Assembly (NCBI GenBank): GCA_965655315.1
Contig: CBFHGJ010000001.1
Location: 207,907 to 271,906 of the forward strand
Source: Bacteroidia bacterium
GTDB lineage: Bacteria; Bacteroidota; Bacteroidia; NS11-12g; UBA9320
Direction of reading: 5' to 3'
DNA length: 64,000 bases
Shown here: one piece after another, positions 21,079 through 48,231 of the stretch
Numbering within the stretch: position 1 is the first letter of the stretch
Layout: every line of letters starts with the position of its first letter
Notes under the pieces: model-generated
Told to the model about the DNA's origin: nothing
What the model saw: the letters and a program-made list of their open reading frames with translations, nothing else
The model's database searches: none
Program-made: the position numbers and the translations under genes

Positions 21079-21079
21079 A

Positions 21080-23339: not shown

Positions 23340-23343
23340 TCAC

Positions 23344-30553: not shown

Positions 30554-33051
30554 TGAAACATACATATCACATACATGGAATGACCTGCAATGGCTGTAGA
30601 AGCCACGTAGAAGAAATACTTTCTGAAGTGGAAGGTGTTTCAAAGGCAAGCGTTAATTTAGTGAATGCAGAAGCTACTTTAGAGATGGAATCACATATTT
30701 CATTAGCGACTTTTCAAAAGGCCCTTAAAACGGATAATAGCAGGTATAGCATATTTGCTCTAGGCGAAGGATATCAATCTAAAGAAACACCTGAACAGAA
30801 ACAACCTAAAAATGGTACAGGCACATTTTACTGCCCTATGCATTGTGAAGGTGATAAAACCTATAATTCGAATGTAGGGTGTCCAGTTTGTGGGATGGAT
30901 CTCGTAGAGGAACAAAACTTATCTAAAAATACCTCTGAACAATGGACTTGTCCGATGCACCCAGAGGTTATAAAAGAAGAATCAGGAGCTTGTCCTAAGT
31001 GCGGAATGGATTTAGTGCCTATGGAGGCAGATAGTTCAGCAGAAGAAAAGAGTTATAAGAAACTTTTTAAGAAATTCTGGATAGCTACCGCATTCACATT
31101 ACCAATTTTCTTAATAGCTATGAGTGAGACGGTTCCTGATAATCCATTATACAATTTAATGGAACAAAAATGGTGGAACTGGATTCAATTTGGACTTTCC
31201 ATTCCAGTTGTCTTCTATGCTACTTGGATGTTTTTTGAACGAGCTTATAGAAGTATCAAAACTTGGAATTTGAATATGTTTACGCTTATAGGTATAGGTG
31301 CAGGTGTTGCTTGGTTATTTAGTGTTTTTGGTATGTTGTTCCCCGATGTATTTCCAGAGCAGTTTAAAACAGAATCTGGAGCAGTACATGTATATTTTGA
31401 AGCTGCAACTGTGATTCTAACCCTAGTATTATTGGGACAGTTACTTGAAGCAAGAGCACATAGCAAAACTACCTCGGCAGTAAAGGAGCTATTGAAACTA
31501 GCACCAAGTAGTGCTACCAAGGTAGTTGATGGGCAAGAGGTTGCAGTCAGTATAGATAAAATAGAATTAGAAGATATCTTAAAAGTAAAGCCAGGAGATA
31601 AAATACCTGTAGATGGAAAGATAACAGAAGGTGAAACTACAATTGACGAATCTATGATTACAGGAGAGCCAATCCCTGTAAATAAATCAAAGGACGATAA
31701 AGTCAGTAGCGGTACAATTAACGGAAATCAAACCTTTTTGATGAAGGCCGAAAAAGTAGGAAGTGACACGCTTCTTTCTCAGATAATTCATATGGTAAAT
31801 AATGCGAGTAGAAGTCGTGCACCAATACAAAATCTAGCAGATAAAGTTTCAGGCTACTTTGTACCTGTAGTAGTCTTTATTTCAATAATTACCTTTGGTG
31901 TATGGGCTATTTGGGGACCAGAGCCAGCTTATGTATTCGCACTGGTAAATGCTATTGCAGTATTGATTATAGCTTGTCCTTGTGCATTAGGATTAGCCAC
32001 ACCCATGTCTGTAATGGTAGGTGTAGGAAAGGGTGCTCAAAACGGCGTTTTAATCAAGAATGCTGAAGCACTAGAAAAACTAAATAAAGTCTATATTCTA
32101 ATAGTAGATAAGACCGGAACTATAACTGAAGGGAAACCAACAGTTGAAACCGTTGGTGCTTTTTATGCTGCTTTAAGCGAAAAAGAAGTGTTACAATACA
32201 TCGTTTCATTAAATACCAATAGCGAACATCCTTTAGCAGAAGCAACAGTTAAATACGGAAAAGAGCATAATGCTGAAATACTAAACTCCGAAGATTTTAG
32301 TGCAGTTACAGGAAAAGGTGTTGAAGCCAAAATTGATGGAAAAAAGGTAGCATTGGGTAATCCTAAAATGATGGAATATGCTAAAGCGGACATTACTTCT
32401 AAAATGAAAGACGAAGCTAAATCTCACCAAAAACAAGGCAAAACTGTTTCTTATTTGTCAATAGATAAAACCGTTGTTGGGTATGTAGTTATAGGCGATA
32501 AGATAAAAGAAACAAGTGCTAAAGCCATTAAAGCACTTCAAGATAAAGGTATTGATGTAATAATGCTGACAGGTGATAATCACGATACTGCAAAAGCAGT
32601 AGCATCAGAATTAAATTTGGCAGATTTTAAAGCCAGTATGTTACCAGAGGACAAACTCAAAGAAGTTGAGAAATTACAAAAAAACGGAAAAGTAATTGCT
32701 ATGGCAGGTGATGGAATTAATGATGCACCAGCATTGGCAAAAAGTGATGTAGGCATTGCAATGGGAACAGGAACAGATGTAGCAATAGAAAGTGCTATGA
32801 TTACATTGGTAAAAGGTGACCTGCAAGGAATAGTAAAAGCTAGAAATCTAAGCGAAGGTGTGATGCGAAATATTAAGCAAAACCTATTTTTTGCACTTAT
32901 CTACAACACTTTAGGTGTACCTATTGCAGCAGGTGTGTTGTTTCCATTCTTCGGAATACTACTCTCACCTATGATAGCGGCTCTAGCAATGAGTTTTAGC
33001 TCAGTATCTGTAATAGTAAATGCCCTTAGATTAAGAACAATAAAAATTTAA
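30553..33051 (+). CDS. copA: copper-translocating P1B-type ATPase with N-terminal HMA and two HMBD motifs
   Basis: HGMTCNGC (HMA); two CPMH...CGMDL motifs; CPC in TM6; DKTGTIT; GDGINDAP. Confidence 0.85.
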   Translation: MKHTYHIHGMTCNGCRSHVEEILSEVEGVSKASVNLVNAEATLEMESHISLATFQKALKTDNSRYSIFALGEGYQSKETPEQKQPKNGTGTFYCPMHCEGDKTYNSNVGCPVCGMDLVEEQNLSKNTSEQWTCPMHPEVIKEESGACPKCGMDLVPMEADSSAEEKSYKKLFKKFWIATAFTLPIFLIAMSETVPDNPLYNLMEQKWWNWIQFGLSIPVVFYATWMFFERAYRSIKTWNLNMFTLIGIGAGVAWLFSVFGMLFPDVFPEQFKTESGAVHVYFEAATVILTLVLLGQLLEARAHSKTTSAVKELLKLAPSSATKVVDGQEVAVSIDKIELEDILKVKPGDKIPVDGKITEGETTIDESMITGEPIPVNKSKDDKVSSGTINGNQTFLMKAEKVGSDTLLSQIIHMVNNASRSRAPIQNLADKVSGYFVPVVVFISIITFGVWAIWGPEPAYVFALVNAIAVLIIACPCALGLATPMSVMVGVGKGAQNGVLIKNAEALEKLNKVYILIVDKTGTITEGKPTVETVGAFYAALSEKEVLQYIVSLNTNSEHPLAEATVKYGKEHNAEILNSEDFSAVTGKGVEAKIDGKKVALGNPKMMEYAKADITSKMKDEAKSHQKQGKTVSYLSIDKTVVGYVVIGDKIKETSAKAIKALQDKGIDVIMLTGDNHDTAKAVASELNLADFKASMLPEDKLKEVEKLQKNGKVIAMAGDGINDAPALAKSDVGIAMGTGTDVAIESAMITLVKGDLQGIVKARNLSEGVMRNIKQNLFFALIYNTLGVPIAAGVLFPFFGILLSPMIAALAMSFSSVSVIVNALRLRTIKI

Positions 33052-33063
33052 AAATAGAAAATC

Positions 33064-33435
33064 ATGAAAAAAATAATTTTAACAATTTGTATAACCGTTT
33101 TAACAATTGGAACTCTAAAAGCACAGACTGTGGCTGTACAAGACTCAATTGTAATAAGTGCAACTGACTCTGCACGCTTTACCGTAAGTGGTAATTGTGG
33201 TATGTGCCAGAGAACAATCGAAAAAGCTGCGATGATTTCTGGGGTGACTAGTGCCGAATGGAATATAGATTCTGGCAAGATGAGTGTCACATATGATCCT
33301 GTAAAGACTAGTATCCTTAAAATACATCAAGCAATAGCTGCATCAGGATATGATACAGATAAAGTAAAAGCTGAGACTTCAACTTATAATGGATTACCTG
33401 GCTGTTGTCAATATGAAAGAACCTCTAAAGAATAA
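33064..33435 (+). CDS. secreted heavy-metal-associated (HMA) domain protein
   Basis: Signal peptide; GNCGMCQRTIEKA is an HMA CxxC motif. Confidence 0.6.
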   Translation: MKKIILTICITVLTIGTLKAQTVAVQDSIVISATDSARFTVSGNCGMCQRTIEKAAMISGVTSAEWNIDSGKMSVTYDPVKTSILKIHQAIAASGYDTDKVKAETSTYNGLPGCCQYERTSKE

Positions 33436-33444
33436 ATGTAAACA

Positions 33445-35196
33445 ATGAAAAAGTATATTATTTACATAGGAATTTTGCTTGGAGGATTGCTTCTTGGTTG
33501 GTTGATATTTGGTACACCATTGTCTGGTGATAGTGGGCACAATCATAATGAGCTATCTGAGAACGGACAGATTTGGACATGCTCTATGCATCCTCAAATC
33601 AGAATGAATGAGGCAGGAGACTGCCCAATATGTGGCATGGATTTAATTCCACTTAAAGATTCTCAATCTGATGAGAACCCAATGAGTATTAAGATGTCTC
33701 CTAAAGCTATGCAACTAGCCAATGTTCAAACGGCCATAGTAACAAAAGGAAGTGCTCTCAAGGAATTAAAGCTAAATGGCAAAGTGCAACCAGATGAGAG
33801 ACAAGTTTCTACTCAAACGAGTCACATAGCAGGCAGAATAGAGCTACTAAAGATTAACTACACTGGAGAGCAGGTATCTAAAGGTCAAGTACTAGCCTAT
33901 GTGTATTCTCCCGAACTTATAAGTGCACAAAAGGAGTTGTTTGAAGCCCAAAAGCTTATTGAGTTACAACCGGCTTTATTTAATTCGGCCAAAGAGAAAC
34001 TCCGGAACTGGAAACTCTCTGCTAGTACAATAAATACAATAATTGAAACAGGAAAAATAATAGAGAATTTCCCTATTCGTGCAGATATTTCGGGTGTAGT
34101 TACAGATAAATTAGTCAATGTTGGAGACTATCTAAATCAAGGAGAACCTTTATATAAAATCTCCAACTTAAATAAACTTTGGATCTTGTTTGATCTGTAT
34201 GAGTCTGATTTGGGTTTTGTGAGTAAAGGAGACAATGTATCATATTCTTTAAATGCAATTGCAGGCAAGACTTTTAATGGACGGATAGCTTTTATCGACC
34301 CTATTGTGGACCCTAAAACAAGAACGGCTAAAGCTAGAGTGGAGGTGAACAATTCAAATAATAAATTGAAACCTGAGATGTTGGTGAATGGCACTATTAA
34401 ATCTGTGATTTCTGCTAACGAAAATACTATGGTAGTTCCTAAGACTGCTGTAATGTGGACAGGCGAGAAATCTATAGTTTATAAAAAAATGGAGACCGCT
34501 AGTGGAGTTAGCTTTATGCTCACAGAAGTAGTTTTAGGCCCTTCTCTAGGGGATTCGTATGTAATAAGTAGTGGATTAGAAGAAGGTGACGAAATAGCCA
34601 CTAATGGCACATTTAGTATAGATGCCGCCGCACAGCTGGCAGGTAAACCCAGTATGATGAATCCTGAAGGAGGTAAATCGTCAATAGGTCATAATCATGG
34701 AGGATCATCAAATGAAATGAATAACAAGCCAAATAAGGCAGTTTCATTAAGTTCAGAAGCTAATAAAAGCCTAGGTAAACTCTTTGATTCATATTTGAAA
34801 GTAAAAGACAATTTAGTAAAAGATGACTTTGAAGGAAGTCAAGAATCTTTAATAGCGTTTAAAACACAGCTTAGTCAAATCAGTATGAGTCTATTCAAAG
34901 GTGAGAATCATGATATATGGATGAAACATTCTGATGCACTAAAAAAACTCGCAGATAAATACACAGCATCAAAGGATATAGCGGAGGCCCGAGACAATTT
35001 TATTCATATCTCCGAGCAGATGATAATGGTTAGTAAAAGTCTTAAACCAAGAATGGATAAGTTGTACGTGCAGTTATGTCCTATGGCAGATAGAAACAAT
35101 GGAGCAAGATGGTTAAGTAAAGAAGAAAAGGTTTTGAATCCATATTTTGGAGAGGCTATGTTGAAGTGCGGTTCGGTTAAGGAGGAGTTAGAATAA
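33445..35196 (+). CDS. efflux RND periplasmic adaptor subunit with N-terminal HMBD and C-terminal DUF3347-like extension
   Basis: CSMHPQI...CPICGMDL; biotinyl-lipoyl and beta-barrel adaptor regions; ~150-aa helical C-terminal extension. Confidence 0.75.
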   Translation: MKKYIIYIGILLGGLLLGWLIFGTPLSGDSGHNHNELSENGQIWTCSMHPQIRMNEAGDCPICGMDLIPLKDSQSDENPMSIKMSPKAMQLANVQTAIVTKGSALKELKLNGKVQPDERQVSTQTSHIAGRIELLKINYTGEQVSKGQVLAYVYSPELISAQKELFEAQKLIELQPALFNSAKEKLRNWKLSASTINTIIETGKIIENFPIRADISGVVTDKLVNVGDYLNQGEPLYKISNLNKLWILFDLYESDLGFVSKGDNVSYSLNAIAGKTFNGRIAFIDPIVDPKTRTAKARVEVNNSNNKLKPEMLVNGTIKSVISANENTMVVPKTAVMWTGEKSIVYKKMETASGVSFMLTEVVLGPSLGDSYVISSGLEEGDEIATNGTFSIDAAAQLAGKPSMMNPEGGKSSIGHNHGGSSNEMNNKPNKAVSLSSEANKSLGKLFDSYLKVKDNLVKDDFEGSQESLIAFKTQLSQISMSLFKGENHDIWMKHSDALKKLADKYTASKDIAEARDNFIHISEQMIMVSKSLKPRMDKLYVQLCPMADRNNGARWLSKEEKVLNPYFGEAMLKCGSVKEELE

Positions 35197-35216
35197 AAGT
35201 TAGTTTAAGATTATAT

Positions 35217-35642
35217 TTGATTCTTAGTATGAACGATGCACTTGATTATAAACTTGCTCAAAGAGATATTAAACCTACGGCAATGCGAATACTTGTTTTG
35301 CAACACCTTATGGAGCAAGACAAAGCCATTTCTCTTCAAACTATTGAAAGTGCTTTTGATATTGCAGATAAATCTACATTGTATCGAACATTAAAAACAT
35401 TTGAAAAAAACAAACTTGTACATACTATCGATGATGGCACGAAACAACTCAAATATGCCCTTTGCTTAGAAAGTTGTGAGTGTGAGACCATTGACCAACA
35501 CTACCATTTTCATTGTTCCAACTGTCAGAACACTTTTTGTCTGACCAACCAAAATATACCTAAAATCGAGCTACCCAAAAATTTCAAAATGTACCAAGCC
35601 AATATGGTAATAAAGGGTTTATGCGAGAATTGTAACAAGTAA
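35217..35642 (+). CDS. Fur family transcriptional regulator
   Basis: Winged-helix N-terminus; HYHFHCSNC...CENC metal-site motifs; ~140 aa. Confidence 0.75.
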   Translation: MILSMNDALDYKLAQRDIKPTAMRILVLQHLMEQDKAISLQTIESAFDIADKSTLYRTLKTFEKNKLVHTIDDGTKQLKYALCLESCECETIDQHYHFHCSNCQNTFCLTNQNIPKIELPKNFKMYQANMVIKGLCENCNK

Positions 35643-35648
35643 AAAACT

Positions 35649-36014
35649 TTGCAAGTGGGTTGCAATAAACTTGTTCTATCTTTGAACTCAGTAATGAGAA
35701 TATTTGCATTAATAACTTCTATTTATATTGCAGCACTTTCGGTAGTGCCGTGTACAGATGGTATGCCGCAAAGTTCCATTCATACAGACATTGAGGTTTC
35801 AGCAGCAGAGCACGACCATGATCATTCAGAACACCAGGATGATTGCACTCCTTTTTGTGTTTGTGCTTGTTGTGGCTCTATAGTTACTTTACCTACCGAT
35901 AAAGCGATGTTAGAGACTAAAATAGAAATTTCTACTGACTACCTTTTTCATTACACATTCGACTATTCCTTTGACTACAGCGAAGGAGTTTGGCATCCGC
36001 CAAGCCTTAGTTAA
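35649..36014 (+). CDS. membrane-anchored His/Cys-rich hypothetical protein
   Basis: TM helix, then EHDHDHSEHQDD and FCVCACCGS; directly upstream of the second czcA. Confidence 0.45.
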   Translation: MQVGCNKLVLSLNSVMRIFALITSIYIAALSVVPCTDGMPQSSIHTDIEVSAAEHDHDHSEHQDDCTPFCVCACCGSIVTLPTDKAMLETKIEISTDYLFHYTFDYSFDYSEGVWHPPSLS

Positions 36015-36088
36015 ACCACTTTCCAAGGGACAACTATGCCCTTTCCATTCATAGTTTAGGTTTAACTTTTTTATAAAATAAAATATTA

Positions 36089-39000
36089 ATGTTCGATAAT
36101 TTAATCGCTTATTCGGTTAAGAATAAGTTTGTCATAGGGCTATTTGTAGCAGCCCTCATAGTTTGGGGGTTATTTTCTCTCAAGCAGCTACCCATAGATG
36201 CTGTACCTGATATAACCAATAATCAAGTACAGATAATCACTATTTCGCCCACACTTGCTACGCAAGAAGTGGAGCAGTTTATTACATCTCCTGTTGAGCT
36301 TGCTCTACAAAGTCTGCAAAAAACAGAAGAGATACGTTCTATATCTCGCTTTGGGCTTTCAGTAGTTACCGTAGTATTTGAAGAAAACTACGATATATAC
36401 TTAGCTCGACAGCTAGTGAATGAAAGACTCAAAGAGGCTCAAGGCAATATACCTGATGGCTTAGGTGTGCCAGAAATGGGGCCCCTCTCTACTGGATTGG
36501 GTGAGATATATCAATATGTAGTTCGACCAGATCAAGGCTTTGAAGAAAAATATTCCGCTACTGAGTTACGAAGCATCCAAGATTGGATTGTCAAAAGACA
36601 GTTGCTTGGAATCGAAGGAGTAGCTGAAGTCAATTCAATGGGTGGATTTTTAAAACAATATGAATTAGCCGTAAATCCTAATCTTCTTAAATCTGTAGGC
36701 ATAAGTATTTCAGATGTATTAGAGGCCTTAGAAAAAAGCAATGAGAATACTGGTGGAGCATACATTGAGAAAAATTCCAATGCCTACTATATCCGTTCTG
36801 AAGGATTAGCAAAGTCTTTAGATGATATTGGAAAAATAGTGGTTAGTGATAGAGGAAATATTCCAGTTTTAATTAGTGACATAGCTACTGTGCAATATGG
36901 TAAAGCTCCTCGATATGGAGCGTTAGTTCGAAATGGTGCAGAAGTAGTAGGTGGTAAGGTAATGATGTTCAAAGGAGCAAATTCTGCACAAGTAACTGAA
37001 AGAATTAAAGAACGAGTAGTACAAGTTCAAAAATCATTACCCGAAGGCGTAATCATAGAACCTTACTTGGTAAGAGATAAACTGGTGAATACTGCAATTG
37101 GTACGGTTAAAAAGAATCTAATTGAAGGTGGTTTAATAGTCATCTTTATATTAGTTCTTCTACTTGGTAATTGGAGAGCTGGATTAATTGTGGCTTCGGT
37201 CATTCCTCTGGCAATGCTGTTTGCCGTTTCTATGATGAACTTATTAGGTATATCAGCTAATCTTATGAGTTTAGGTGCTATTGATTTTGGATTGATAGTA
37301 GATGGTGCAGTTATAATAGTGGAAGCTATAGTACACCGCCTACAAGTCAAAAAAGCAGGAAGTCTGCTTTCGCAAACCGAAATGGACACAGAGGTAATTG
37401 CTTCCTCACAGAAAATAAGAAGTTCAGCAGCATTTGGTGAGATTATCATTCTGATGGTATACATACCTATTTTGGCTTTGGTAGGTATAGAAGGTAAAAT
37501 GTTTAAGCCTATGGCTCAAACAGTAATGCTTGCTATTGCAGGTGCATTGATACTTTCATTGACGTATGTACCTATGATGGCAGCCTTGGTGCTCAAGAAA
37601 AATGTAGTCAATAAAGAAACTTTTGCAGATAAAATCATTGCCTTTTTCCAAAGAGGCTACACACCAATTTTAAATGCAGCTCTACGGTTCAAAACAGTTT
37701 TTGTAAGTGCAACTATACTTGCTTTTTTAATCAGTCTGTTTGTATTCAGTAGGATGGGTGGCGAGTTTATTCCTACATTAGAAGAAGGTGACTTGGCAAT
37801 GCACCAAATCTTAGTGCCGGGCAGTTCACTGTCTCAAAGTGTAGAAACTGCTAAACTTATTCAAAACAGATTAAAAGATAGTATTCCAGAAATCATCGAT
37901 GATGTGGTAATTATAGGTTCGGCAGAAGTGCCAACTGATCCTATGCCCACAGAAATAGGCGACCATATTTTAGTTATGAAACCTAAATCTGAATGGACCA
38001 CAGCCACTACTAAACAGGGAATGTTTGACGCTATAAATGATGTCTTGAAAGATATTCCAGGAGTGACTTATGAATACTCACAACCAATTCAAATGAGGTT
38101 TAATGAATTGATGACAGGAACTCGGTCTGATATTGCCATTAAGCTATTTGGTGCTGACTTAGATGTGCTTTATCAAAAAGCAATAGAAGCTCAGGCTATA
38201 ATCGAAAAAGTAAGTGGTGTTGCTTCTGCCAATGTAGAGCAAACGATTGGAATGCCTCAAATTATCGTTTCATATAATTATGATAATATGGCACAATACG
38301 GTTTACATATTCAAGAGGTCAATCAAGTTGTTCGTTCAGCCTTTGCTGGAGAAAAAGCAGGAATTATTTATGAGGGTGATAAAAGGTTTGATTTAGTGGT
38401 TCGCCTAGCGGAAGAAAATAGAACAGGTATAGAAGATGTCGAAAATCTATTTATAACGCTGAGCAATGGAAGTCAAGTGCCGCTTACCAGTGTAGCCAAT
38501 GTTGATTTGATAGATGCACCTATGCAAATTTCAAGAGAAAACACTAATAGAAGAATTGTAATTGGTGTAAATGTAGGTAATACAGATGTAGAATCTTTAG
38601 TGGAAAAGATCCAAACAGAATTAGACACTAAAGTTAAGTTGCCGAACGGTTATTATTTTACTTATGGCGGACAGTTTGAAAACCTAAAAGCAGCCAATGC
38701 GAGATTATCTATTGCCGTTCCAATGGCCTTAGCCTTAATCTTCATTTTGCTTTACTTCACCTTTGGTTCAGTTTCACAGGCAGCTTTAATTTTTACAGCC
38801 ATTCCTTTGTCTGCCATTGGTGGAATATGGGCTTTGCAGCTTAGAGGGTTACCATTTAGCATTTCAGCTGGCATTGGTTTCATAGCTCTTTTTGGAGTAG
38901 CTGTGCTCAATGGCATTGTACTTATTGGCTATTTCAACCAACTTAAAAAGGAAGGAATGAAAAACATAAAAGAAAGAATTACAACAGGAACAAGAGTAAG

Positions 39001-40408
39001 ACTTAGACCAGTAATTATGACGGCTGCAGTAGCTTCACTTGGGTTTTTACCAATGGCTATATCTACTTCGGGCGGAGCAGAAGTTCAAAGACCATTGGCA
39101 ACGGTAGTTATTGGTGGTTTGATAACCGCTACTTTTTTAACATTGATCATATTGCCTATTCTTTACTATTGGTTAGAAAAATGGAGCGAAAGAAAAACCA
39201 ACAGAATTAATGTATCGAAAGGTGGTGTATTAGGAATCTTGTTGATTTTAGGTTTGTCCTTTTCTGCCCAAGCACAAGAGCAAGCTCTTGATTTGGATAG
39301 TGCTATTTCTATGGCAATCACTAATCATCCCAATTTAAAAGCAGCAAGTTTGGAAGTAGAGAAAAACAAGTCTTTACAAAACCTAAAATATAACTTGGGT
39401 ACTACAGATATATCCTATCAAGGTGATGGATTAGTAGATAGACAATTTGGACAGCAGGTTAATCAATTTGGAGTAGTTCAGAATTTCCCAAGTCCAGGTA
39501 TTACTAAGGCTCAAAATAAATTGCAAGATGCGTATACAAGTCAGAGCAGCACCCAACAGCAAATAACGGAGAACGAACTGAAATGGAAAGTCAAGCAATT
39601 ATACTTTGAAATTCAGTACAAAAAGGAATTGGAAAGGCTTTATAGCAATCTTGTTTCTACTTATAAAGAATACCATAGAAAATCAACTGTAAGAGTACAA
39701 GCAGGAGCTGCCAGTCGTATCGAAGAACTAACTTTACAATCCAAATGGAAGGGATACGAACTGCTCTATAACCAAGTTAAAATAGAAATTGCTAACTTAA
39801 ATAAGCGGTTTCAATTATTACTAAATACTAAGGAGTCTATTACCACCATAAATAGTCTATCAGTGGCAAACTATCTCACTCAGATAGATACAGCTACAAA
39901 CCCACTTCTATTAAAAAGTCAGCAAGAAATTGCCGTAGAAAATGCCAAAGTAGATGCTATGAAGGCTGAATTAAAACCCAGCTTCAATGTTGGCTATGCT
40001 GCACAAAATTTCAATCAAGGAGGTTGGCTAAATGCAGCACAAGCAGGCGTTGCTATTCCGCTATTTAATGGTCAAACTAAAAAGAGAATAGCGGCTCAGG
40101 AAAAGCAGATTGAGATAGGCAACTATCAATACCAAAGTACACTTTTGAGTTTCAAACAAGACCAATTAGAGATACAAAACACATTGAACTTGTATCAAGC
40201 AGGAGTGGATTTTTACAAAAACCAAATAGAAACCATTAATCCAGAAATTATCAGAATAAGTGAACTAAACTACCAAGCAGGAGAAATCTCTTACTTAGAA
40301 TTATTGAACACTTTACAACTGATGACAACCAATAATAAAAATTATTGGGAGCAGATTTTAGCCTACAATAAGGCGGTAGCTGACTTTCAATTTCTTACAA
40401 ATCAATAA
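36089..40408 (+). CDS. czcA: CusA/CzcA family HME-RND permease fused in frame to a C-terminal TolC-like outer membrane factor domain
   Basis: aa 1-~1040 are full CzcA; the linker GGVLGILLILGLSFSAQAQ is signal-peptide-like; aa ~1060-1439 are paralogous to the separate OMF at 29324 (NHPNLKAASLEVE...LLLNTK). Confidence 0.8.
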   Translation: MFDNLIAYSVKNKFVIGLFVAALIVWGLFSLKQLPIDAVPDITNNQVQIITISPTLATQEVEQFITSPVELALQSLQKTEEIRSISRFGLSVVTVVFEENYDIYLARQLVNERLKEAQGNIPDGLGVPEMGPLSTGLGEIYQYVVRPDQGFEEKYSATELRSIQDWIVKRQLLGIEGVAEVNSMGGFLKQYELAVNPNLLKSVGISISDVLEALEKSNENTGGAYIEKNSNAYYIRSEGLAKSLDDIGKIVVSDRGNIPVLISDIATVQYGKAPRYGALVRNGAEVVGGKVMMFKGANSAQVTERIKERVVQVQKSLPEGVIIEPYLVRDKLVNTAIGTVKKNLIEGGLIVIFILVLLLGNWRAGLIVASVIPLAMLFAVSMMNLLGISANLMSLGAIDFGLIVDGAVIIVEAIVHRLQVKKAGSLLSQTEMDTEVIASSQKIRSSAAFGEIIILMVYIPILALVGIEGKMFKPMAQTVMLAIAGALILSLTYVPMMAALVLKKNVVNKETFADKIIAFFQRGYTPILNAALRFKTVFVSATILAFLISLFVFSRMGGEFIPTLEEGDLAMHQILVPGSSLSQSVETAKLIQNRLKDSIPEIIDDVVIIGSAEVPTDPMPTEIGDHILVMKPKSEWTTATTKQGMFDAINDVLKDIPGVTYEYSQPIQMRFNELMTGTRSDIAIKLFGADLDVLYQKAIEAQAIIEKVSGVASANVEQTIGMPQIIVSYNYDNMAQYGLHIQEVNQVVRSAFAGEKAGIIYEGDKRFDLVVRLAEENRTGIEDVENLFITLSNGSQVPLTSVANVDLIDAPMQISRENTNRRIVIGVNVGNTDVESLVEKIQTELDTKVKLPNGYYFTYGGQFENLKAANARLSIAVPMALALIFILLYFTFGSVSQAALIFTAIPLSAIGGIWALQLRGLPFSISAGIGFIALFGVAVLNGIVLIGYFNQLKKEGMKNIKERITTGTRVRLRPVIMTAAVASLGFLPMAISTSGGAEVQRPLATVVIGGLITATFLTLIILPILYYWLEKWSERKTNRINVSKGGVLGILLILGLSFSAQAQEQALDLDSAISMAITNHPNLKAASLEVEKNKSLQNLKYNLGTTDISYQGDGLVDRQFGQQVNQFGVVQNFPSPGITKAQNKLQDAYTSQSSTQQQITENELKWKVKQLYFEIQYKKELERLYSNLVSTYKEYHRKSTVRVQAGAASRIEELTLQSKWKGYELLYNQVKIEIANLNKRFQLLLNTKESITTINSLSVANYLTQIDTATNPLLLKSQQEIAVENAKVDAMKAELKPSFNVGYAAQNFNQGGWLNAAQAGVAIPLFNGQTKKRIAAQEKQIEIGNYQYQSTLLSFKQDQLEIQNTLNLYQAGVDFYKNQIETINPEIIRISELNYQAGEISYLELLNTLQLMTTNNKNYWEQILAYNKAVADFQFLTNQ

Positions 40409-40421
40409 AAGACATTTAAAA

Positions 40422-41654
40422 ATGAATCATACAAAATATTTCATAGCTATAATTACAATACTTTCACTTCTTGTATTTTCTTCTTGTGGTCATAAACATA
40501 CCGAAGGAGACGGCCATAATCACGGAGCAGAAGAATCTACTCACTCTGAGGATGATGAACACGACCACGGAGGAGAAGAACAACACGAAGAAGGACTACA
40601 CCTTTCAAAAGCACAAGCCAAGACAATCGGTTTAGAATTTGGAACATTGTCCTCTATCAAAGTCAATGACTTTGTTAAAGCAACAGGTTCATTGGGTCTG
40701 CCGCCAAATGCTCATTCTTCTGTTTCGGCAAAAACTAACGGTATCATAAAAGGAACAAAAAAATTCGTAGAAGGTGATTACATAAAGAAAGGAGCAGTAA
40801 TTGCTTATCTCGAAAATGCTGATTTAATAATTACACAGCAAGATTATTTAGAAGCAAAGGCTCAGCTTAACCTAAAGAGATTAGAGGTAGAACGACAAAA
40901 AACCTTAGTGGAATCCAATGCTGGCGTAACCAAGAATTTACAAAATGCTCAAGCAGAAGTGGCAGTATTGGATGCTAAAACACAAGGACTTGCTAAACAA
41001 CTGTCCTTCTTAGGAATATCAACTTCTAATCTGTCACCAAGTACCATAAAACAGCAAATAGCTATTGTAGCACCAATGAGTGGCTATATTTCTAAGATTA
41101 ATTTTCACAATGGTATGTATGCTCAATCTTCGATTTCATTAATGGATATAATTTCTTCAGAGCACCTTCATTTAGAGTTAGATGTATTTGAAAAGGACAT
41201 TGCTAATATCAAGAAAGGGCAAAAGATTAGCTATACGGTTCCTGCACTTGGCCAGTCAGTTTACTACGGAACAGTAGAGGTAATTGGTAAAGAGTTCAAC
41301 ACCAATTCTAAGACTATACGTGTTCACGGTCACTTAGAAGGTACAAAGCCAACCTTTCTAAAAGACTTATTCATTAACGCTAAAATATATCTCAATAACG
41401 AAGAGTCCTCAGCTTTACTAGAGGAAGCAATTATAAAAGATGGAGCGAACAGTTTTATATATGTAGCTAATGAAAAGCCGAATGATAAAGAAATAAAATT
41501 TGAGAAGATAGCAGTTGTTACAGGTGCAACAGACAATGGTTTTACAGCCGTGAAATTAATCGATACAATTCCAGATGGAATGCAGATAGTAACGAAAGGA
41601 GCTTACTATGTCTATGCACAATCTAAAGCAGGAGAATTAGAACACGAACATTAA
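40422..41654 (+). CDS. efflux RND periplasmic adaptor subunit with His-rich N-terminal region
   Basis: Lipobox FSSC; GHKHTEGDGHNHGAEESTHSEDDEHDHGG; MFP hairpin/barrel pattern; C-terminal HEH. Confidence 0.75.
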   Translation: MNHTKYFIAIITILSLLVFSSCGHKHTEGDGHNHGAEESTHSEDDEHDHGGEEQHEEGLHLSKAQAKTIGLEFGTLSSIKVNDFVKATGSLGLPPNAHSSVSAKTNGIIKGTKKFVEGDYIKKGAVIAYLENADLIITQQDYLEAKAQLNLKRLEVERQKTLVESNAGVTKNLQNAQAEVAVLDAKTQGLAKQLSFLGISTSNLSPSTIKQQIAIVAPMSGYISKINFHNGMYAQSSISLMDIISSEHLHLELDVFEKDIANIKKGQKISYTVPALGQSVYYGTVEVIGKEFNTNSKTIRVHGHLEGTKPTFLKDLFINAKIYLNNEESSALLEEAIIKDGANSFIYVANEKPNDKEIKFEKIAVVTGATDNGFTAVKLIDTIPDGMQIVTKGAYYVYAQSKAGELEHEH

Positions 41655-41665
41655 TACTTTGAGAT

Positions 41666-42304
41666 ATGAATAAGCAACTAAAAAAAGCAATTAAGTACTA
41701 CGATAAATTTGCAAAAGTCTATGACCTATTTTCACCAAAATGGTACTACGGCAATGCAAGAAAATACGCTATTCAGCAGATGGCATTGAAGGAAGGTAGT
41801 ACGGTTTTAAATGTCCCTTGTGGCACAGGTCAAAATTTGGAATATTTCCAAAAGAATATGAATAATACAGGTCTTATAATTAGCATTGATCTATCAGAAG
41901 GAATGCTTGAAAAGGCAAAGGAAGTAGTAAATAAGAATGACTGGAAGAATGTCCATATTGTAAAAGAAGATGCTACAAAAGTTAATACCACTTGGCTTGC
42001 AACCCAATATGACAATACGCTAAGAGCAGATGCTATACTTTGTGATTTAGGATTATCTGGATTTCCTGATTGGGAAAAAGTAATTGATAATCTATATGAG
42101 CTTTTAGCACCAAAGGGGCGGTTGGTAATTATGGATTGGTATTTACCCAAACCTACTTTAAGAGGAAAACCTATCAAATGGATAGGAAAAGGAGAAGTGG
42201 ATAGACCTATTTATCAATATCTACAAAGTAAAACCAATGACTTTAGTGTTGATACCTCTTTTAATAGAGGAGGTGTGTTTGTAGCAACAGGAATCAAATC
42301 TTAA
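41666..42304 (+). CDS. class I SAM-dependent methyltransferase
   Basis: Motif I VLNVPCGTGQNL with an acidic residue following. Confidence 0.65.
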   Translation: MNKQLKKAIKYYDKFAKVYDLFSPKWYYGNARKYAIQQMALKEGSTVLNVPCGTGQNLEYFQKNMNNTGLIISIDLSEGMLEKAKEVVNKNDWKNVHIVKEDATKVNTTWLATQYDNTLRADAILCDLGLSGFPDWEKVIDNLYELLAPKGRLVIMDWYLPKPTLRGKPIKWIGKGEVDRPIYQYLQSKTNDFSVDTSFNRGGVFVATGIKS

Positions 42305-42320
42305 CCAACCGAAAATCATT

Positions 42321-42932
42321 ATGTATCTATTTATATTTTTTATTGTCTATTTCCTTTTGGTCTTTGTTCTAAGATCATTTCTACTTTGGAAGAAAACCAA
42401 TGTAAACCCACTCACCTTTAACAAGGGTGACGATGCACACGGCTACAATGGTAAAGTCTTTGGTATTATTTCTATCATAGAACTAATTGTAGTTTCTATT
42501 TATGCCTTTATTCCAAGTTGGCACAAGTTTCTATTACCGTTTTGGTATTTAGAAAATGATACTTTAGTATATATCGGTTGGGCATTACTAATCCTGTCCT
42601 TACTATTTGTATGGTTTGCTCAATCCAATATGAGGGAATCTTGGCGTATTGGTATAGATGAAGTAGACAAAACCGAATTAGTAACCAATGGCTTTTTTGC
42701 TATTTCTCGTAACCCTATTTTCTTAGGTATAATGATTGCCAATGTTGGACTATTCTTAGTGCTTCCCAATGCCTTTACACTACTAATCATAGCACTATCT
42801 ACCGTTAGCATTAATACACAGATTAGACTTGAAGAAGAATTTCTTGTAAAGGAATTTGGAGAAAAATACACTGAGTACAAGCAAAGAGTTAATAGATGGA
42901 TAACCTTTAAAAGTTTAAATAATGATAAATAA
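42321..42932 (+). CDS. isoprenylcysteine carboxyl methyltransferase (ICMT/PEMT) family membrane methyltransferase
   Basis: Multi-TM protein; C-terminal NPIFLG...EEEFLVKEFGEKYTEYKQRV signature. Confidence 0.65.
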   Translation: MYLFIFFIVYFLLVFVLRSFLLWKKTNVNPLTFNKGDDAHGYNGKVFGIISIIELIVVSIYAFIPSWHKFLLPFWYLENDTLVYIGWALLILSLLFVWFAQSNMRESWRIGIDEVDKTELVTNGFFAISRNPIFLGIMIANVGLFLVLPNAFTLLIIALSTVSINTQIRLEEEFLVKEFGEKYTEYKQRVNRWITFKSLNNDK

Positions 42933-44952
42933 AAATCATACCCATATCTATGACGACAGTGGCAAGCAAATATGTTGTTCTCTTGAAGAAAAAATAGATA
43001 GAAAGTCACCACCACCACCATTGGTGAATTCGGATGATGATGGTCATAATCATAGCAATGACCATTCCTTCGGAAATGAAAGCAATTGGAAGGTCTATTT
43101 ACCTGCTATTATCAGCTTTGTTTTACTCATTTCAGGTATTGCTTTAGACTATTTTGATGTTGCTTTCTTTAAAGGTTGGCTCAGGATAATATGGTTTGGA
43201 GTTGCATATATTCCTGTCGGGCTGCCAGTACTTAGAGAAGCATTTAGATCACTAAGCAAAGGTCAAATCTTTACAGAGTTTTTCTTAATGGGTATAGCCA
43301 CTATTGGAGCTTTTGCCATAGGAGAATATCCAGAAGGTGTTGCTGTGATGCTTTTCTATGCTGTTGGAGAATTATTCCAAAGTGCAGCAGTAAGACGAGC
43401 AAAGGACAATATCACAGCCCTTCTAGACGTACGTCCAAAAATAGCCAATGTATTAAGAAACAATTCCTTCCTTGAGGTCAACCCAAATGATGTTAAGGTA
43501 GATGAAACCATACAAATAAAGGTTGGAGAGAAAGTACCATTAGATGGTACTTTGCTTTCAGCCAAAGCCAGTCTAAATACAGCAGCCTTAACAGGTGAAA
43601 GTAAACCTCAAAGTATAGTAAAAGGAGGAAACGTATTGGCAGGCTCTATTAATATCGATGGAGTAATAGAAGTAAAAACAACAAAACTATTCAATGATAG
43701 TTCAGTATCGCGAATATTAGAGTTGGTACAAAATGCAACTTCCAAGAAGGCAAAGACAGAACTTCTTATCAGAAGATTGGCAAAAGTTTATACTCCCATT
43801 GTGGTCTATTTAGCAATTGCCGTATGCTTTCTACCTTACTTTTTTGTAGACGATTATGTGTTTAGTGATTGGCTTTATAGAGCCCTTATTTTCTTAGTAA
43901 TTTCTTGTCCTTGTGCATTGGTCATTTCTATTCCTTTGGGATATTTTGGTGGCCTTGGTGCAGCTTCTAAAAATGGCATATTGTTCAAAGGAGCTACGTA
44001 TATGGATAAGCTAAAAGAGGTAAACACAATGGTGATGGATAAGACGGGAACAGTTACCAAAGGAGTGTTTAAGATTAAGGATATTGAAGTAATAGGCAAA
44101 TATTCTAAAGATGAGTTTATGACTTTTCTTTTAGCCATTGAATCTAAATCTACTCACCCAATTGCCAAAGCAATTAGCGAATACCCATTAGACAATGAGG
44201 TTCCAGAAGCCACAGATATAAAAGAAATTGCAGGTAAAGGATTGCAAGGTATTATCAACGGCACTCAGGTTGTGGCAGGGAATAAAAAGCTAATGTCTCA
44301 TTTCAATATTTCCACACCAAAGGAAATTGACAGCATTGTAGAATCCATAGTATTAGTGGGTGTTGATGGTCAGTTTGCAGGTTATGTAACTATTGCAGAC
44401 GAGTTGAAAGAAGATGCCAAGGCAACCATTGCTGCCTTCAAGAAAGAAGGTATTGATTTAATAATAATGCTTTCAGGTGATAAGGACAGTATCACTCAAC
44501 AAGTAGCAAAGGAATTGGGTATCTCAAAGGCAAAAGGAGGACTATTACCTGAAGATAAATTGAATGAAGTAGAATTACTCAAACAAGATCCTACAAAAAC
44601 AATTGCTTTTATGGGTGATGGTATCAATGATGCACCCGTATTAGCAGCAAGTGACGTGGGTATAGCTATGGGAGCAATGGGAAGTGATGTAGCCATTGAA
44701 ACAGCAGATGTAATCATTCAAACGGACCAACCTTCAAAAGTCGTCACTGGTCTTCAAATTGCTAAATCCACTCAAAAGATTATTTGGCAGAATATCTTCC
44801 TTGCTTTTGGTATCAAAATCATTGTTCTCATATTAGGAGCAGGTGGTTTAGCCACAATGTGGGAAGCAGTTTTTGCAGATGTAGGAGTAGCACTATTGGC
44901 AATAATTAATGCAGTAAGATTACAAAGAATGCAGTGGTACGGATTTTGTTAA
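42922..44952 (+). CDS. heavy-metal (Zn/Cd/Pb-type) P1B ATPase with His-rich N-terminus
   Basis: DDDGHNHSNDHS; CPC motif (SCPCALV); DKTGTVT; GDGINDAP; no HMA domain. Confidence 0.8.
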   Translation: MINKNHTHIYDDSGKQICCSLEEKIDRKSPPPPLVNSDDDGHNHSNDHSFGNESNWKVYLPAIISFVLLISGIALDYFDVAFFKGWLRIIWFGVAYIPVGLPVLREAFRSLSKGQIFTEFFLMGIATIGAFAIGEYPEGVAVMLFYAVGELFQSAAVRRAKDNITALLDVRPKIANVLRNNSFLEVNPNDVKVDETIQIKVGEKVPLDGTLLSAKASLNTAALTGESKPQSIVKGGNVLAGSINIDGVIEVKTTKLFNDSSVSRILELVQNATSKKAKTELLIRRLAKVYTPIVVYLAIAVCFLPYFFVDDYVFSDWLYRALIFLVISCPCALVISIPLGYFGGLGAASKNGILFKGATYMDKLKEVNTMVMDKTGTVTKGVFKIKDIEVIGKYSKDEFMTFLLAIESKSTHPIAKAISEYPLDNEVPEATDIKEIAGKGLQGIINGTQVVAGNKKLMSHFNISTPKEIDSIVESIVLVGVDGQFAGYVTIADELKEDAKATIAAFKKEGIDLIIMLSGDKDSITQQVAKELGISKAKGGLLPEDKLNEVELLKQDPTKTIAFMGDGINDAPVLAASDVGIAMGAMGSDVAIETADVIIQTDQPSKVVTGLQIAKSTQKIIWQNIFLAFGIKIIVLILGAGGLATMWEAVFADVGVALLAIINAVRLQRMQWYGFC

Positions 44953-44966
44953 AGTATAAAGAAGCG

Positions 44967-45101
44967 ATGCACAGAGGACTTAAGCCAAGAATAGATAAGT
45001 TGTACCTGCTGCCATATCCTATGGCAGATAGAAACAATGGATCAAGATGGTGTTCTGTGGCATTAACGCGAACGTTTTTGCTAAACGTTTGGATTTGCTG
45101 A
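44967..45101 (+). pseudogene. remnant of a duplicated efflux-adaptor 3' end
   Basis: 44979-45050 aligns with 35043-35112: LKPRIDKLYLLPYPMADRNNGSRW versus LKPRMDKLYVQLCPMADRNNGARW. Confidence 0.7.
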
Positions 45102-45143
45102 TTCAACCTACACTTATGCTCCTGCGTCACAGATACCCATAGC

Positions 45144-45304
45144 CATCATTCTTCAAGCGGTGTACTTCAAACTCATATTCACATTGAGTTATAGAGATAA
45201 CTAGGAGCTTTTGAAAAGCAGAGGGGTACAAGTAGATCACTCCACACTTCAAAGGTGGGTGTTTAAGTTCAGACCAATGATTGAAACCAAGGCATTCCAA
45301 GGGT
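45144..45304 (+). mobile_element. IS6-family transposase N-terminal remnant (pseudogene with in-frame TAG)
   Basis: IILQAVYFKLIFTLSYRDN*ELLKSRGVQVDHSTLQRWVFKFRPMIE resembles IS26 Tnp DIILWAVRWYCKYGISYRELQEMLAERGVNVDHSTIYRWVQRYAPEME. Confidence 0.55.
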
Positions 45305-45545
45305 GAGTTTCGTGTCACAGTTGGGAACGTATTGACAGGGGCCATTTAAAATTTAAGGAGGTTGTAAGCAGATGGAGTTCCTAGTTTTTCATTTTTTTGG
45401 CAAAATATTTTTTTTCGTCTTTTCACCATTTTTTTGAAAAATATTTCATTCGCGCCATCGAGCCCCCTATATCTAAGTCCCTAAACGATATATAAGGTGG
45501 GATACCCCCTACCTGATAGGAGGGAGGAGATCCCCGGATCTAATT

Positions 45546-45700
45546 TTGATTGGCGCCATCTCACAATATAGAGTGTCGGTTTCATAGGAACTGAGTCTGG
45601 TATTTGTATTTCGAAACAGGAGGAGGAATGGTTTGATCCTGGAAGGGATCATGAATATTGATTGGCATATCCAGAATTTGAGATCTATTTCCAGGTAGTT
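45546..45700 (+). promoter_or_regulatory. three direct copies of (A)TTGATTGGC upstream of the serine recombinase gene
   Basis: Copies at 45546-45554, 45658-45666 and 45692-45700; an inverted copy lies at 46673-46681 downstream of the gene. Confidence 0.5.
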
Positions 45701-45841
45701 ATTGATTGGCCCAACTAAAACATCACATTTTGGGGTATACTTTTTTTTGTGATGTCCATTTTGGTAAAAAACATAGATTTTATGCTGCATATGTGTGTTT
45801 TGGCTATACTTTTAGGGTGCATACATAATAACCCTAAAAAA

Positions 45842-46465
45842 ATGAGTAATTCAATACTGTATACGAGAGTTTCATCCATAGATCAAAGAACAGATCGACA
45901 GAGAGTAAATGAAAAGAGTTATGACCTAGTTATTGAGGATAAATGCCCAGGGGATTTGGAAATATTTCTAAGACCAGAAGGTTCTAGGTTGAAAACTATG
46001 ATAGACAGGAATTTAGTTGGTTCGATTTCTGTTTGGTCGATTGATCGTTGTGGCCGTAACCTTCGGAACATTATTGACTTTATCTATTACACAACCGAAC
46101 GCAGAATTCCAGTAACCTTTATTTCTCAAGGTTTATGTACGTTAGATGAAAATGGTGATGAGAATCCAATAGCTAAGATGTTCATATCCATATTAGGTTG
46201 TGTTGCAGAAATGGAGAGAAGTCAGATAAAGGAGAGGCAAAGGCAGGGAATCGACTTAGCCTTGCTAGATCCAAATAAGTATTTAGGACGTAAACCTGGA
46301 AGTCAAGAAACAGTTCTGCAGTTTCTTTCGAAGAAGAAAAACAAACAGGCCATGGATTTACTACAGAAAGGATATAAGAATATTGAGGTTTCCAAAATCG
46401 CTGGATTACACCCTAATACAATATCAAAGATTAAAAAGTACCTTAATGTCTCAAATCCCGGGTGA
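45842..46465 (+). CDS. small serine recombinase (resolvase/invertase family)
   Basis: N-terminal ILYTRVSSIDQRTDRQ catalytic-Ser motif; C-terminal HTH; start taken at the Met in MSNSILY to give the canonical N-terminus. Confidence 0.85.
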   Translation: MSNSILYTRVSSIDQRTDRQRVNEKSYDLVIEDKCPGDLEIFLRPEGSRLKTMIDRNLVGSISVWSIDRCGRNLRNIIDFIYYTTERRIPVTFISQGLCTLDENGDENPIAKMFISILGCVAEMERSQIKERQRQGIDLALLDPNKYLGRKPGSQETVLQFLSKKKNKQAMDLLQKGYKNIEVSKIAGLHPNTISKIKKYLNVSNPG

Positions 46466-46672
46466 ACATTTTTTAAACTGTATTACAAAATACCATAACT
46501 TGAACCGTATGAGTCTCGGTGTTGAATCACTCCTGTAATATGTCGGAAGTGTATTCAAACCTAATTCACAAATGGATTTAGTCCGCTTGATAGCTGTTAA
46601 ACAGGGTTTGGAGAGATTTATTAGATAAGAATGAACTTACTTTAAACGGAGGTCAATTCCTTAGACTTAATT

Positions 46673-46681
46673 GCCAATCAA
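46673..46681 (-). promoter_or_regulatory. inverted copy of the TTGATTGGC motif downstream of the resolvase gene
   Basis: GCCAATCAA is the reverse complement of TTGATTGGC; flanks match the upstream copies (AATATTGATTGGCAATT on the minus strand). Confidence 0.45.
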
Positions 46682-46785
46682 TATTTCCACACTATCCAGA
46701 CCCAGAATTCCGTCTCAGACCATTTCAATGTGGAATTATTGCCATCAGATTCTAGTTCTGATTAGTAATAAAACCATAGCGTTCC

Positions 46786-46986
46786 TTACGACAAATTCTG
46801 CGAATTGTTTTCTATAGAATCATCAGTTTTGCTTTCAGGTAATTCAGATATGTTAGGTGTTTTTATTACTATGGATTGAAGTAAACGCCTGTATTGTTTT
46901 CTGTTTAAGCCAAGGGATTTCATAATTTCTTTGTTCATGATTGAGGTTTTATAATAAGTATGTGATACTTCAAAAACTATTTGCAT
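46786..46986 (-). CDS. small hypothetical protein
   Basis: 66-aa ORF; no motif recognised; may be spurious. Confidence 0.2.
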   Translation of the reverse strand: MQIVFEVSHTYYKTSIMNKEIMKSLGLNRKQYRRLLQSIVIKTPNISELPESKTDDSIENNSQNLS

Positions 46987-47027
46987 AAGGAGTTCTCTGT
47001 TGCTACTTTTATACCCAATCTTTAAAT

Positions 47028-48167: not shown

Positions 48168-48231
48168 AGTCGAAATTATCTGTCGCGCGACACTTGAGGA
48201 TAAGGGTTGAAAATAGGGCCACCTTGGCTCT

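Follow-up and report, generated by a model that had tools for sequence, protein, structure and literature searches.

A heavy-metal efflux permease fused in frame to an outer-membrane factor in Bacteroidota, with a predicted signal peptidase I site at the domain junction

Results

A single gene encodes a complete permease and a complete outer-membrane factor

We analysed a 64,000-nucleotide stretch of contig CBFHGJ010000001.1 from a Bacteroidia bacterium (assembly GCA_965655315.1; hereafter "the window"), in which one gene, at 36089..40408, encodes a CzcA-type heavy-metal efflux (HME) permease of the resistance-nodulation-division (RND) class joined in frame to an outer-membrane factor (OMF). 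The fusion is kept in related loci across the Bacteroidota, and the segment that joins the two domains has the features of a signal peptide. Judging from the comparison with homologues, the fused gene most likely encodes a polyprotein that is cut by signal peptidase I between A1062 and Q1063, which would yield a CzcA protein with 13 transmembrane (TM) helices and a free OMF. Features are listed in Table 1, with positions numbered from the first nucleotide of the window.

The open reading frame (ORF) contains no internal stop codon over 1439 aa, and each of the other two reading frames contains several stops at the junction. The Pfam model ACR_tran matched residues 6–1029 of the fused protein with 894.5 bits, and the NCBIfam model TIGR00914 matched residues 1–1038 with 1185.8 bits (cut-off 701.45), placing the RND part in the CusA/CzcA family. 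The best solved relative of the RND part was ZneA (4k0e; 625.5 bits), with an alignment running end to end (residues 2–1034 against 2–1020), and the second best was CusA (561.7 bits). The layout of 12 TM helices with two large periplasmic loops is colinear with that of solved HME pumps, with hydropathy peaks where they are expected. TM4 contains the motif AIDFGLIVDGAVIIVE at residues ~397–412, which is of the divalent-cation (Czc/Zne) type; in Nies's classification of HME proteins, the consensus DFG-x3-DGA-x3-VE, a charged proton relay, marks the divalent-cation class. The similarity to ZneA and the TM4 motif suggest that the substrates are divalent cations (Zn/Co/Cd).

The Pfam model OEP (PF02321; TolC/OEP family, TC 1.B.17) matched the fused protein in two stretches extending to residue 1438, with 85.3 bits against a cut-off of 22. 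A sequence search of the PDB with the OMF domain gave no match at E <= 1, and we therefore turned to a fold search. An AlphaFold2 model of residues 960–1439, built on 65 aligned homologues, had a mean pLDDT (predicted local distance difference test) of 87.6, with values mostly >90 in the OMF domain. The modelled domain consists of two repeats of helices, two beta-strands and a long helical hairpin (strands 147–157, 164–174, 339–349 and 353–363 in model numbering; helices of 35–70 residues), which is the TolC fold. Foldseek matched the model to OprM, CmeC, CusC, SilC and TolC, all with a probability of 1.0, with target-normalised TM-scores of 0.66–0.73 to OprM, TOprJ1, CusC, SilC and TolC. The model for the NodT subfamily scored 23, far below its cut-off of 210, and no subfamily was assigned. 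Both domains are complete: a full CzcA/ZneA-type HME-RND permease is followed in frame by an entire TolC-fold OMF (residues 1063–1439). The first-pass annotation of the window had described just such a fusion, with which Pfam, TIGR00914 and the AlphaFold2 and Foldseek results all agree.

The fusion is conserved across Bacteroidota

We found an identical 1439-aa protein on 20 contigs from different samples in ENA, JGI and Logan assemblies; in one of these (locus L003), the fused gene is intact although many of its neighbour genes are broken. A scan of one genome per species identified 38 related loci in Bacteroidota, covering Saprospiraceae, Chitinophagales, Flavobacteriales, Cytophagaceae and the isolates Jiulongibacter sediminis and Saprospirales GYS_P2D. 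Thirty-six of these loci span the junction, and 32 of the 36 contain an intact ORF of 1433–1441 aa, with 49–99% identity over the junction and OMF part, such that the survey of orthologues proposed by the first-pass annotation did recover the ~1440-aa architecture. Two of the four other loci end at a contig edge, and two are long-read assemblies broken within the RND part, not at the junction.

Finished plasmids of cultured isolates also carry the fusion as a single coding sequence, named only "CusA/CzcA family heavy metal efflux RND transporter". Examples of fused proteins are WP_338794304.1 (1439 aa) on a plasmid of Bernardetia sp. MNP-M8 and Slin_6757 (1480 aa; labelled "heavy metal efflux pump, CzcA family") on plasmid pSLIN01 (CP001770.1) of Spirosoma linguale DSM 74; the same architecture occurs in Haliscomenobacter, Runella, Hymenobacter, Flavobacterium and Chryseobacterium. 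The junction reads LSFSVQA↓QQK in the Bernardetia protein and TSASA↓QVN in Slin_6757. Among the best 120 matches in a collection of 5.8 billion proteins, ~97 contain both Pfam domains, and all organisms named are Bacteroidota. The predicted cut lies 30–45 residues past the end of TM12, and the frame is kept in every one of 65 fused homologues. Lastly, we made an exhaustive HMMER search with the OMF part, kept the best 150 cluster representatives (50% identity), and classed them using hidden Markov models of the RND C-terminus and of the OMF domain. This set comprised 54 fused proteins, 61 stand-alone OMFs of ~400 aa with an ordinary N-terminal signal peptide, and 35 fragments or proteins left without a class.

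An assembly or sequencing error, by loss of a stop codon or by frameshift, could have merged adjacent czcA and OMF genes. One related locus (L044, described below) has the two genes split, in the same order and even in the same frame, so that a single lost stop region could mimic a fusion. We rejected this explanation, to which we attach next to no probability, because the identical ORF recurs on 20 contigs across samples and assemblers, including the one with broken neighbours; because it is kept in 32 of the 36 loci, at identities as low as 49%; because complete plasmids of pure cultures are annotated with one coding sequence; and because 54 of the best 150 cluster representatives are fused. 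A stop codon or frameshift between the domains, the observation that the first-pass annotation had named as fatal to its reading, was absent from the 20 contigs, the 32 loci and the finished isolate plasmids. As judged by this conservation, the fusion is real and under selection, and the fused layout is common in Bacteroidota.

The junction resembles the signal peptides of stand-alone relatives

After TM12, the chain continues with EKWSERKTNRINVSK (residues 1030–1044), GGVLGILLILGLSFS (1045–1059) and AQA (1060–1062), followed by the start of the OMF, QEQALDLDSAISMAITNHPNLK. We aligned the junctions of the 65 fused homologues, which have ~30–84% identity. The residue after the predicted cut (P+1) is Gln in all 65; past the last helix of the pump, only three other columns are invariant (in fragment numbering, the four are Q104, G247, E253 and G439). 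The residue before the cut (P-1) is Ala in 55 homologues, Ser in seven and Gly in three, and P-3 is A, T, S, V, I or G in 60 of the 65. The linker is variable in sequence but carries a positive net charge across homologues (median +3), and is followed by an uncharged stretch with a median length of 17 residues, reaching 25 in some homologues. As read from the alignment, this pattern is that of the von Heijne -3/-1 rule combined with the Q-rule of Bacteroidetes signal peptidase I substrates (Bochtler et al., 2018, PMC5837995; also PMC10653852). More than 60% of signal peptidase I substrates in Bacteroidetes have Gln at +1, which is cyclised to pyroglutamate by glutaminyl cyclase (PMC5837995).

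The junction thus has the positively charged n-region, the uncharged h-region, the small residues at -3 and -1 and the Gln at +1 of a Sec/signal peptidase I signal peptide. It lacks the N-terminal position that a signal peptide has in a precursor, being internal (residues 1030–1062); correspondingly, the OMF of the fused gene is not a separate precursor with its own N-terminal signal peptide. The first-pass annotation had interpreted the junction as a retained signal peptide ending at AQA↓Q. Our analysis supports both the interpretation and the site, and the junction sequence that it quoted is exact. Its further point, that a 13th membrane crossing is needed to return the chain from the cytoplasmic RND C-terminus to the periplasm, also stands.

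We compared conservation along the protein in 33 close full-length orthologues. Column identity in the block of residues 1041–1080 is 0.63, one of the two lowest values, as compared with 0.94–0.96 in the blocks covering residues 881–1000, the C-terminal transmembrane region of the pump. All 33 junctions nevertheless have, without exception, a basic segment, then a hydrophobic segment, then x-A-Q. In the AlphaFold2 model, the h-region helix is just 11 residues long, with low-confidence segments on both sides, and the first element of the OMF is a short strand that begins at Q1065, ~2 residues past the predicted cut.

The 61 stand-alone OMFs served as a control. At the site aligned to Q1063, an Ala, Ser or Gly followed by Gln is found in 53 of the 54 fused proteins and in 58 of the 61 stand-alone proteins. 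The spectra of residues at -1 and -3 are alike in the two classes, which also share a median of 17 residues for the uncharged stretch. By these measures, no statistical difference sets the internal junction apart from the N-terminal signal peptides of stand-alone relatives. The stand-alone OMF of the window has a signal peptide ending in TTQA↓QH, which likewise follows the Q-rule. These comparisons indicate that the junction probably behaves as a cleavable Sec signal peptide, not as a packed helix.

A model for processing of the fusion by signal peptidase I

In the reading that we favour, the 12-TM RND permease would be inserted co-translationally, leaving its C-terminal tail in the cytoplasm. 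The basic linker E1030–K1044 would remain inside, and G1045–S1059 would enter SecYEG in the N-in/C-out orientation, like an N-terminal signal peptide. The 377-residue OMF domain would be translocated to the periplasm, as are the pump's own 300-residue periplasmic loops, and signal peptidase I would cut at A1062↓Q1063. The new N-terminal Gln would probably be cyclised to pyroglutamate, giving a mature OMF that begins with pyroGlu-EQALDLDSAISMAITNHPNLK. The freed OMF (43.0 kDa) would then follow the route through chaperones and the beta-barrel assembly machinery (BAM) to form a trimeric outer-membrane channel. CzcA (115.6 kDa) would retain the spent signal peptide as a C-terminal 13th helix, and the separately encoded adaptor (40422..41654) would connect CzcA with the OMF. 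Fusion would give equimolar synthesis of the two trimeric parts (3:3); the adaptor, which is needed in another ratio, would remain a separate gene.

Alternatively, the segment might be a permanent 13th TM anchor that keeps the OMF joined to the RND protein. In support of such an arrangement, the chain is continuous, the segment is hydrophobic enough to cross the membrane, and its uncharged stretch (median 17 residues, up to 25) overlaps the lower range of anchor lengths; moreover, cleavage itself is a matter of inference. By contrast, an anchor requires neither an Ala, Ser or Gly at P-1 nor a Gln at P+1, and all 65 fused homologues have both, as stand-alone signal peptides do. The segment is among the least conserved parts of the protein, unlike packed RND helices, and split orthologues use the same signal peptide. 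Furthermore, in assembled pumps (AcrAB-TolC, e.g. 5ng5) the N-terminal strand of the OMF is part of the equatorial domain, and the inner membrane is >100 Å away. With the first OMF element starting only ~2 residues past the site, an uncut chain would be too short to extend to a channel in its canonical outer-membrane position. We consider a permanent anchor unlikely, and the same holds for chains that are left uncut or partly cut, in which the RND trimer would be covalently linked through the 13th helix to its own TolC-like trimer. The comparative evidence at P-1 and P+1 favours cleavage at AQA↓Q over the permanent tether between pump and outer-membrane barrel that the first-pass annotation had envisaged. 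Were the tether real, it would imply an envelope-spanning architecture or an assembly pathway without parallel among the described tripartite pumps: the OMF might, for instance, be handed over to BAM in a cis-coupled manner, or its tunnel might work while anchored in the inner membrane.

A second alternative is that the OMF is made mostly from an internal start codon in the linker, with the read-through fusion being incidental. Some in-frame ATG, GTG or TTG lies >=18 codons before the site in 13 of 33 loci. In the window gene and 19 other loci (20/33), the linker is free of in-frame ATG, GTG and TTG codons, ATG is present in only four of the 33, and the positions are not conserved. In addition, no stop codon ends CzcA, so each ribosome that finishes CzcA also makes the OMF domain. 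We rejected the internal start, which has a very slim chance of being correct, on the grounds that 20 of the 33 loci lack a start in the linker and that the positions are unconserved. Because there is no conserved internal start in the linker, the OMF must be produced via the fusion.

It is also conceivable that another enzyme (lipoprotein signal peptidase II, a rhomboid protease, a site-2 protease or autoproteolysis) cuts the chain, or that the cut falls at another position. The identity of the cleaving enzyme is deduced from sequence, and many OMFs of the NodT/CusC type are lipoproteins. However, none of the 65 homologues has a Cys at or near +1, and there is consequently no lipobox. In Bacteroidota, small residues at -3 and -1 together with Gln at +1 mark a signal peptidase I substrate. 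We regard this possibility as very unlikely.

Several considerations weigh against the processing that we propose. In bacteria, signal peptidase I rarely cuts behind a 12-TM domain, and few precedents are known, among them the FbcH cytochrome b/c1 precursor of Bradyrhizobium and engineered Lep constructs. The case for cleavage is built on comparative statistics; we found no experimental evidence of processing, and the supplements of the Q-rule paper (PMC5837995) contain no CzcA, RND or efflux entries. The invariant Gln might instead be kept for a structural reason within the OMF domain, an argument that is weakened because this residue lies beyond the part that is folded with confidence and co-varies with a small residue at P-1. 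Finally, the sequence AQAQ holds two overlapping candidate sites, A1060↓Q1061 and A1062↓Q1063; we favour the latter because it fits the -3/-1 rule and the alignment better.

A split orthologue has the same organization as the fused gene

Locus L044, from a metagenome-assembled genome (MAG; GCA_020631545.1, positions 1263..5672), contains a czcA gene of 1038 aa followed, in the same reading frame, by an OMF gene of 402 aa. Its CzcA ends with WLAKWEEKGAT and a stop codon, after which come an 84-nt spacer with three in-frame stops and an OMF gene with its own ATG. This OMF (P0122) is the closest stand-alone relative among the best 150 representatives, with 46% identity over the OMF. Its N-terminus reads MYFINKLGCPPLGVLLLFSVVLLGGTAAAQ↓QVLTMDEAV, with a signal peptide ending in GGTAAAQ↓Q that lies at the same distance from the first OMF helix as in the fused protein. 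As judged by these two gene organizations, split and fused forms of one system exist and differ only in the spacer. L044 resembles a fused gene that has gained a spacer or, conversely, the fused gene resembles an L044-like pair that has lost it.

We also placed the OMF domains (P0121–P0263) on a crude tree (unweighted pair group method with arithmetic mean, with Fitch parsimony for the fused or stand-alone state). Fused and stand-alone proteins were interleaved, requiring 31 changes as compared with 35.7 in shuffles, at ~25% identity. This interleaving reflects either frequent fusion and fission or a mere lack of resolution at that level of identity.

The fused gene lies in a conserved metal-efflux module

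The fused gene is part of a module consisting of a Fur-family regulator, a DUF6660 protein, the RND::OMF fusion, the periplasmic adaptor, a PEMT-like methyltransferase and a P-type ATPase, which is kept across related loci and on the Bernardetia plasmid. The Fur-family gene, a candidate Zur-like metal sensor of the module, lies upstream of the fused gene in many related loci, and its counterpart on the Bernardetia plasmid is annotated as a "transcriptional repressor". In most related loci, the DUF6660 gene immediately precedes the fused gene, and its product is probably a metal-binding accessory protein. The adaptor gene, identified by its family match and its adjacency to the RND gene, starts 13 nt past the fused gene and follows it in nearly all related loci whose sequence reaches that far. 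At its N-terminus, the adaptor has a lipobox-like sequence (LLVFSSC) and then a His/Asp/Glu-rich stretch, HKHTEGDGHNHGAEESTHSEDDEHDHGGEEQHEE, and the protein ends in ELEHEH; both the stretch and ELEHEH are plausible metal-binding tails. The PEMT-like gene occupies the same position in most related loci. A P-type ATPase gene is likewise downstream in most of them, and is annotated on the Bernardetia plasmid as a "heavy metal translocating P-type ATPase"; the ATPase probably exports metal from the cytoplasm to the periplasm, feeding the RND pump.

Table 1. Features of the fused gene, its module and the surrounding island (window positions)
Feature	Position	Strand	Evidence or remarks
MerT-HMA fusion	16885..17484		
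MbnP	19057..20049	+	type IX secretion C-terminal sorting domain (Por_Secre_tail)
Multicopper oxidase	23344..25053	+	Por_Secre_tail
Cus-like RND permease	25528..29334	+	1268 aa
Cus-like OMF	29324..30553		
Fur-family transcriptional regulator	35217..35642	+	Pfam FUR, E = 3.8e-08
DUF6660 small protein	35649..36014	+	His/Cys-rich motif HDHDHSEHQDDCTPFCVCACCG; Pfam DUF6660, E = 2.4e-10
Fused RND::OMF gene	36089..40408	+	ATG start, 1439 codons plus stop; predicted precursor 158.6 kDa
HME-RND permease proper, residues 1–1029	36089..39175	+	through the end of TM12 (LPILYYWL); TIGR00914, ZneA alignment, hydropathy
Cytoplasmic basic linker (signal-peptide n-region), E1030–K1044 (EKWSERKTNRINVSK)	39176..39220	+	
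Hydrophobic h-region, G1045–S1059 (GGVLGILLILGLSFS), 13th membrane crossing	39221..39265	+	
Predicted signal peptidase I site, A1060-Q-A1062↓Q1063	39266..39277	+	homologue statistics, Q-rule
Mature OMF domain (predicted), Q1063–Q1439	39275..40405	+	377 aa, 43.0 kDa; Pfam OEP, AlphaFold2, Foldseek
Periplasmic adaptor (membrane fusion protein)	40422..41654	+	TIGR01730, 126.3 bits (cut-off 94.9); Pfam HlyD_D23
S-adenosylmethionine-dependent methyltransferase	41666..42304	+	between adaptor and P-type ATPase
PEMT/ICMT-family membrane methyltransferase	42321..42932	+	
P-type ATPase	42922..44952	+	E1-E2 ATPase and HAD domains
Resolvase	45749..46465		
DNA methylase	48232..49842		
Large serine recombinase	51650..53212		3' end overlaps 3' end of tRNA-Asn
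tRNA-Asn	53175..53251	-	

A second, Cus-like efflux system lies in the same metal-resistance island

The window contains a second RND system, of the Cus type (25528..35196), accompanied by a Cu-type P-ATPase, an HMA protein and a CusB-like adaptor. Its RND protein is 26–31% identical to the fused RND part. The first-pass annotation had treated its OMF as a paralogue of the fused OMF domain and the two as the split and fused states of one arrangement, side by side. The two OMFs are homologous (E = 3e-11), so the first of these statements holds to that extent; the relationship is distant (24% identity), and the stand-alone OMF belongs to a different, Cus-like system. The second statement does not hold, as the two OMFs serve different subfamilies, Cus-like and Czc/Zne-like. 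We also noted that the Cus-like RND protein is ~220 aa longer than CusA, with a Pfam match in four separate stretches. One insert, hydrophobic and ~170 residues long, lies between TM6 and TM7 (~520–690) and may add transmembrane helices; another, of ~80 residues, lies in the second periplasmic loop.

Both systems are in a metal-resistance island of ~38 kb (roughly 15.5–53.2 kb; ~15500..53250) with mercury, copper and zinc-type determinants, which also contains two resolvases, a DNA methylase and a large serine recombinase. Two MauG-like di-haem peroxidases are encoded there as well. MbnP and the multicopper oxidase are predicted to be exported to the cell surface because both carry Por_Secre_tail. 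We found no second copy of the tRNA-Asn 3' end, which would set the left border of the island, within the 64-kb window. The fused gene and its neighbours are 99–100% identical in loci L001–L005, L006 and L007, which include metagenomes of several studies; the copies of the fused gene in L006 and L007 are 99% identical and come from MAGs labelled as different orders (Sphingobacteriales and Flavobacteriaceae). This near-identity reflects either recent horizontal spread of the island or binning errors. The element is probably mobile, given the near-identical copies in different orders and in many metagenomes, and the presence of related modules on plasmids.

Discussion

The trio of RND permease, TolC-fold OMF and periplasmic adaptor described here is that of CzcCBA of Cupriavidus metallidurans and of ZneCAB. 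Those systems are encoded by three genes in the order C-B-A or C-A-B, whereas here the RND protein and the OMF share one ORF and the order is A::C, then B. In further contrast to Czc and Zne, the signal peptide of the OMF lies within the chain, the mature OMF is short, at 377 aa, and too divergent for a sequence match in the PDB, and the module includes a Fur-family regulator, DUF6660, a PEMT-like methyltransferase and a P-type ATPase. Both the CusCFBA system of E. coli and the window's Cus-like set are likewise HME-RND pumps with their own OMF and adaptor, and CusC and SilC are among the top fold matches of the fused OMF domain. The OMF of the Cus-like set is a separate gene product with an N-terminal signal peptide, whereas the fused OMF is internal; CusC is a lipoprotein, whereas the fused OMF contains no Cys. 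Closest in arrangement is L044, which has the same gene order and OMF subfamily as the fused gene and differs by a stop, a spacer and an ATG for the OMF.

Like Q-rule signal peptides, the junction begins with a basic n-region, continues with ~17 uncharged residues and ends with small residues at -3 and -1 before a Gln at +1. It differs from them in its location after residue 1029 of a 12-TM protein, and in that it would stay on CzcA after cleavage instead of being degraded. FbcH of Bradyrhizobium japonicum is a polyprotein that is split by signal peptidase at an internal signal peptide, and viral envelope polyproteins are processed by host signal peptidase at internal signal peptides. As in the fusion described here, these chains combine a polytopic protein that ends in the cytoplasm, a signal peptide and an exported domain. 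The second product here differs in being an outer-membrane beta-barrel/alpha-tunnel protein, which must leave the inner membrane and be assembled by BAM elsewhere. Overall, we consider this to be probably an ordinary HME-RND tripartite pump with an unusual polyprotein biogenesis; a new transport mechanism is improbable.

We found no paper on an RND/OMF fusion or its processing in a search that lay outside most subscription journals and TCDB. The fusion is not mentioned in the examined part of a 2021 Chem Rev review of tripartite pumps or in a census of Bacteroides transporters, and a review of fusions of outer-membrane pore proteins does not list the RND::OMF architecture. The architecture has been present in public databases for years, unremarked. 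In the top matches and annotated plasmids that we examined, fused proteins are labelled only as CzcA or RND permease. Because of this labelling, OMF inventories and predictions of signal peptides and outer-membrane proteomes for Bacteroidota will miss fused OMFs. Within the subfamily sampled, at least 54 of the 150 cluster representatives are fused.

If the proposed processing is correct, the fusion would be a widespread natural bacterial polyprotein in which signal peptidase I splits an inner-membrane transporter from an outer-membrane channel. It would mean that an internal signal peptide after a 12-TM domain is routinely usable in bacteria, that the Q-rule of Bacteroidetes reaches internal sites, and that an RND protein keeps a 13th helix. 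It would also provide these organisms with a genetic means of fixing a 1:1 ratio of two trimeric pump parts.

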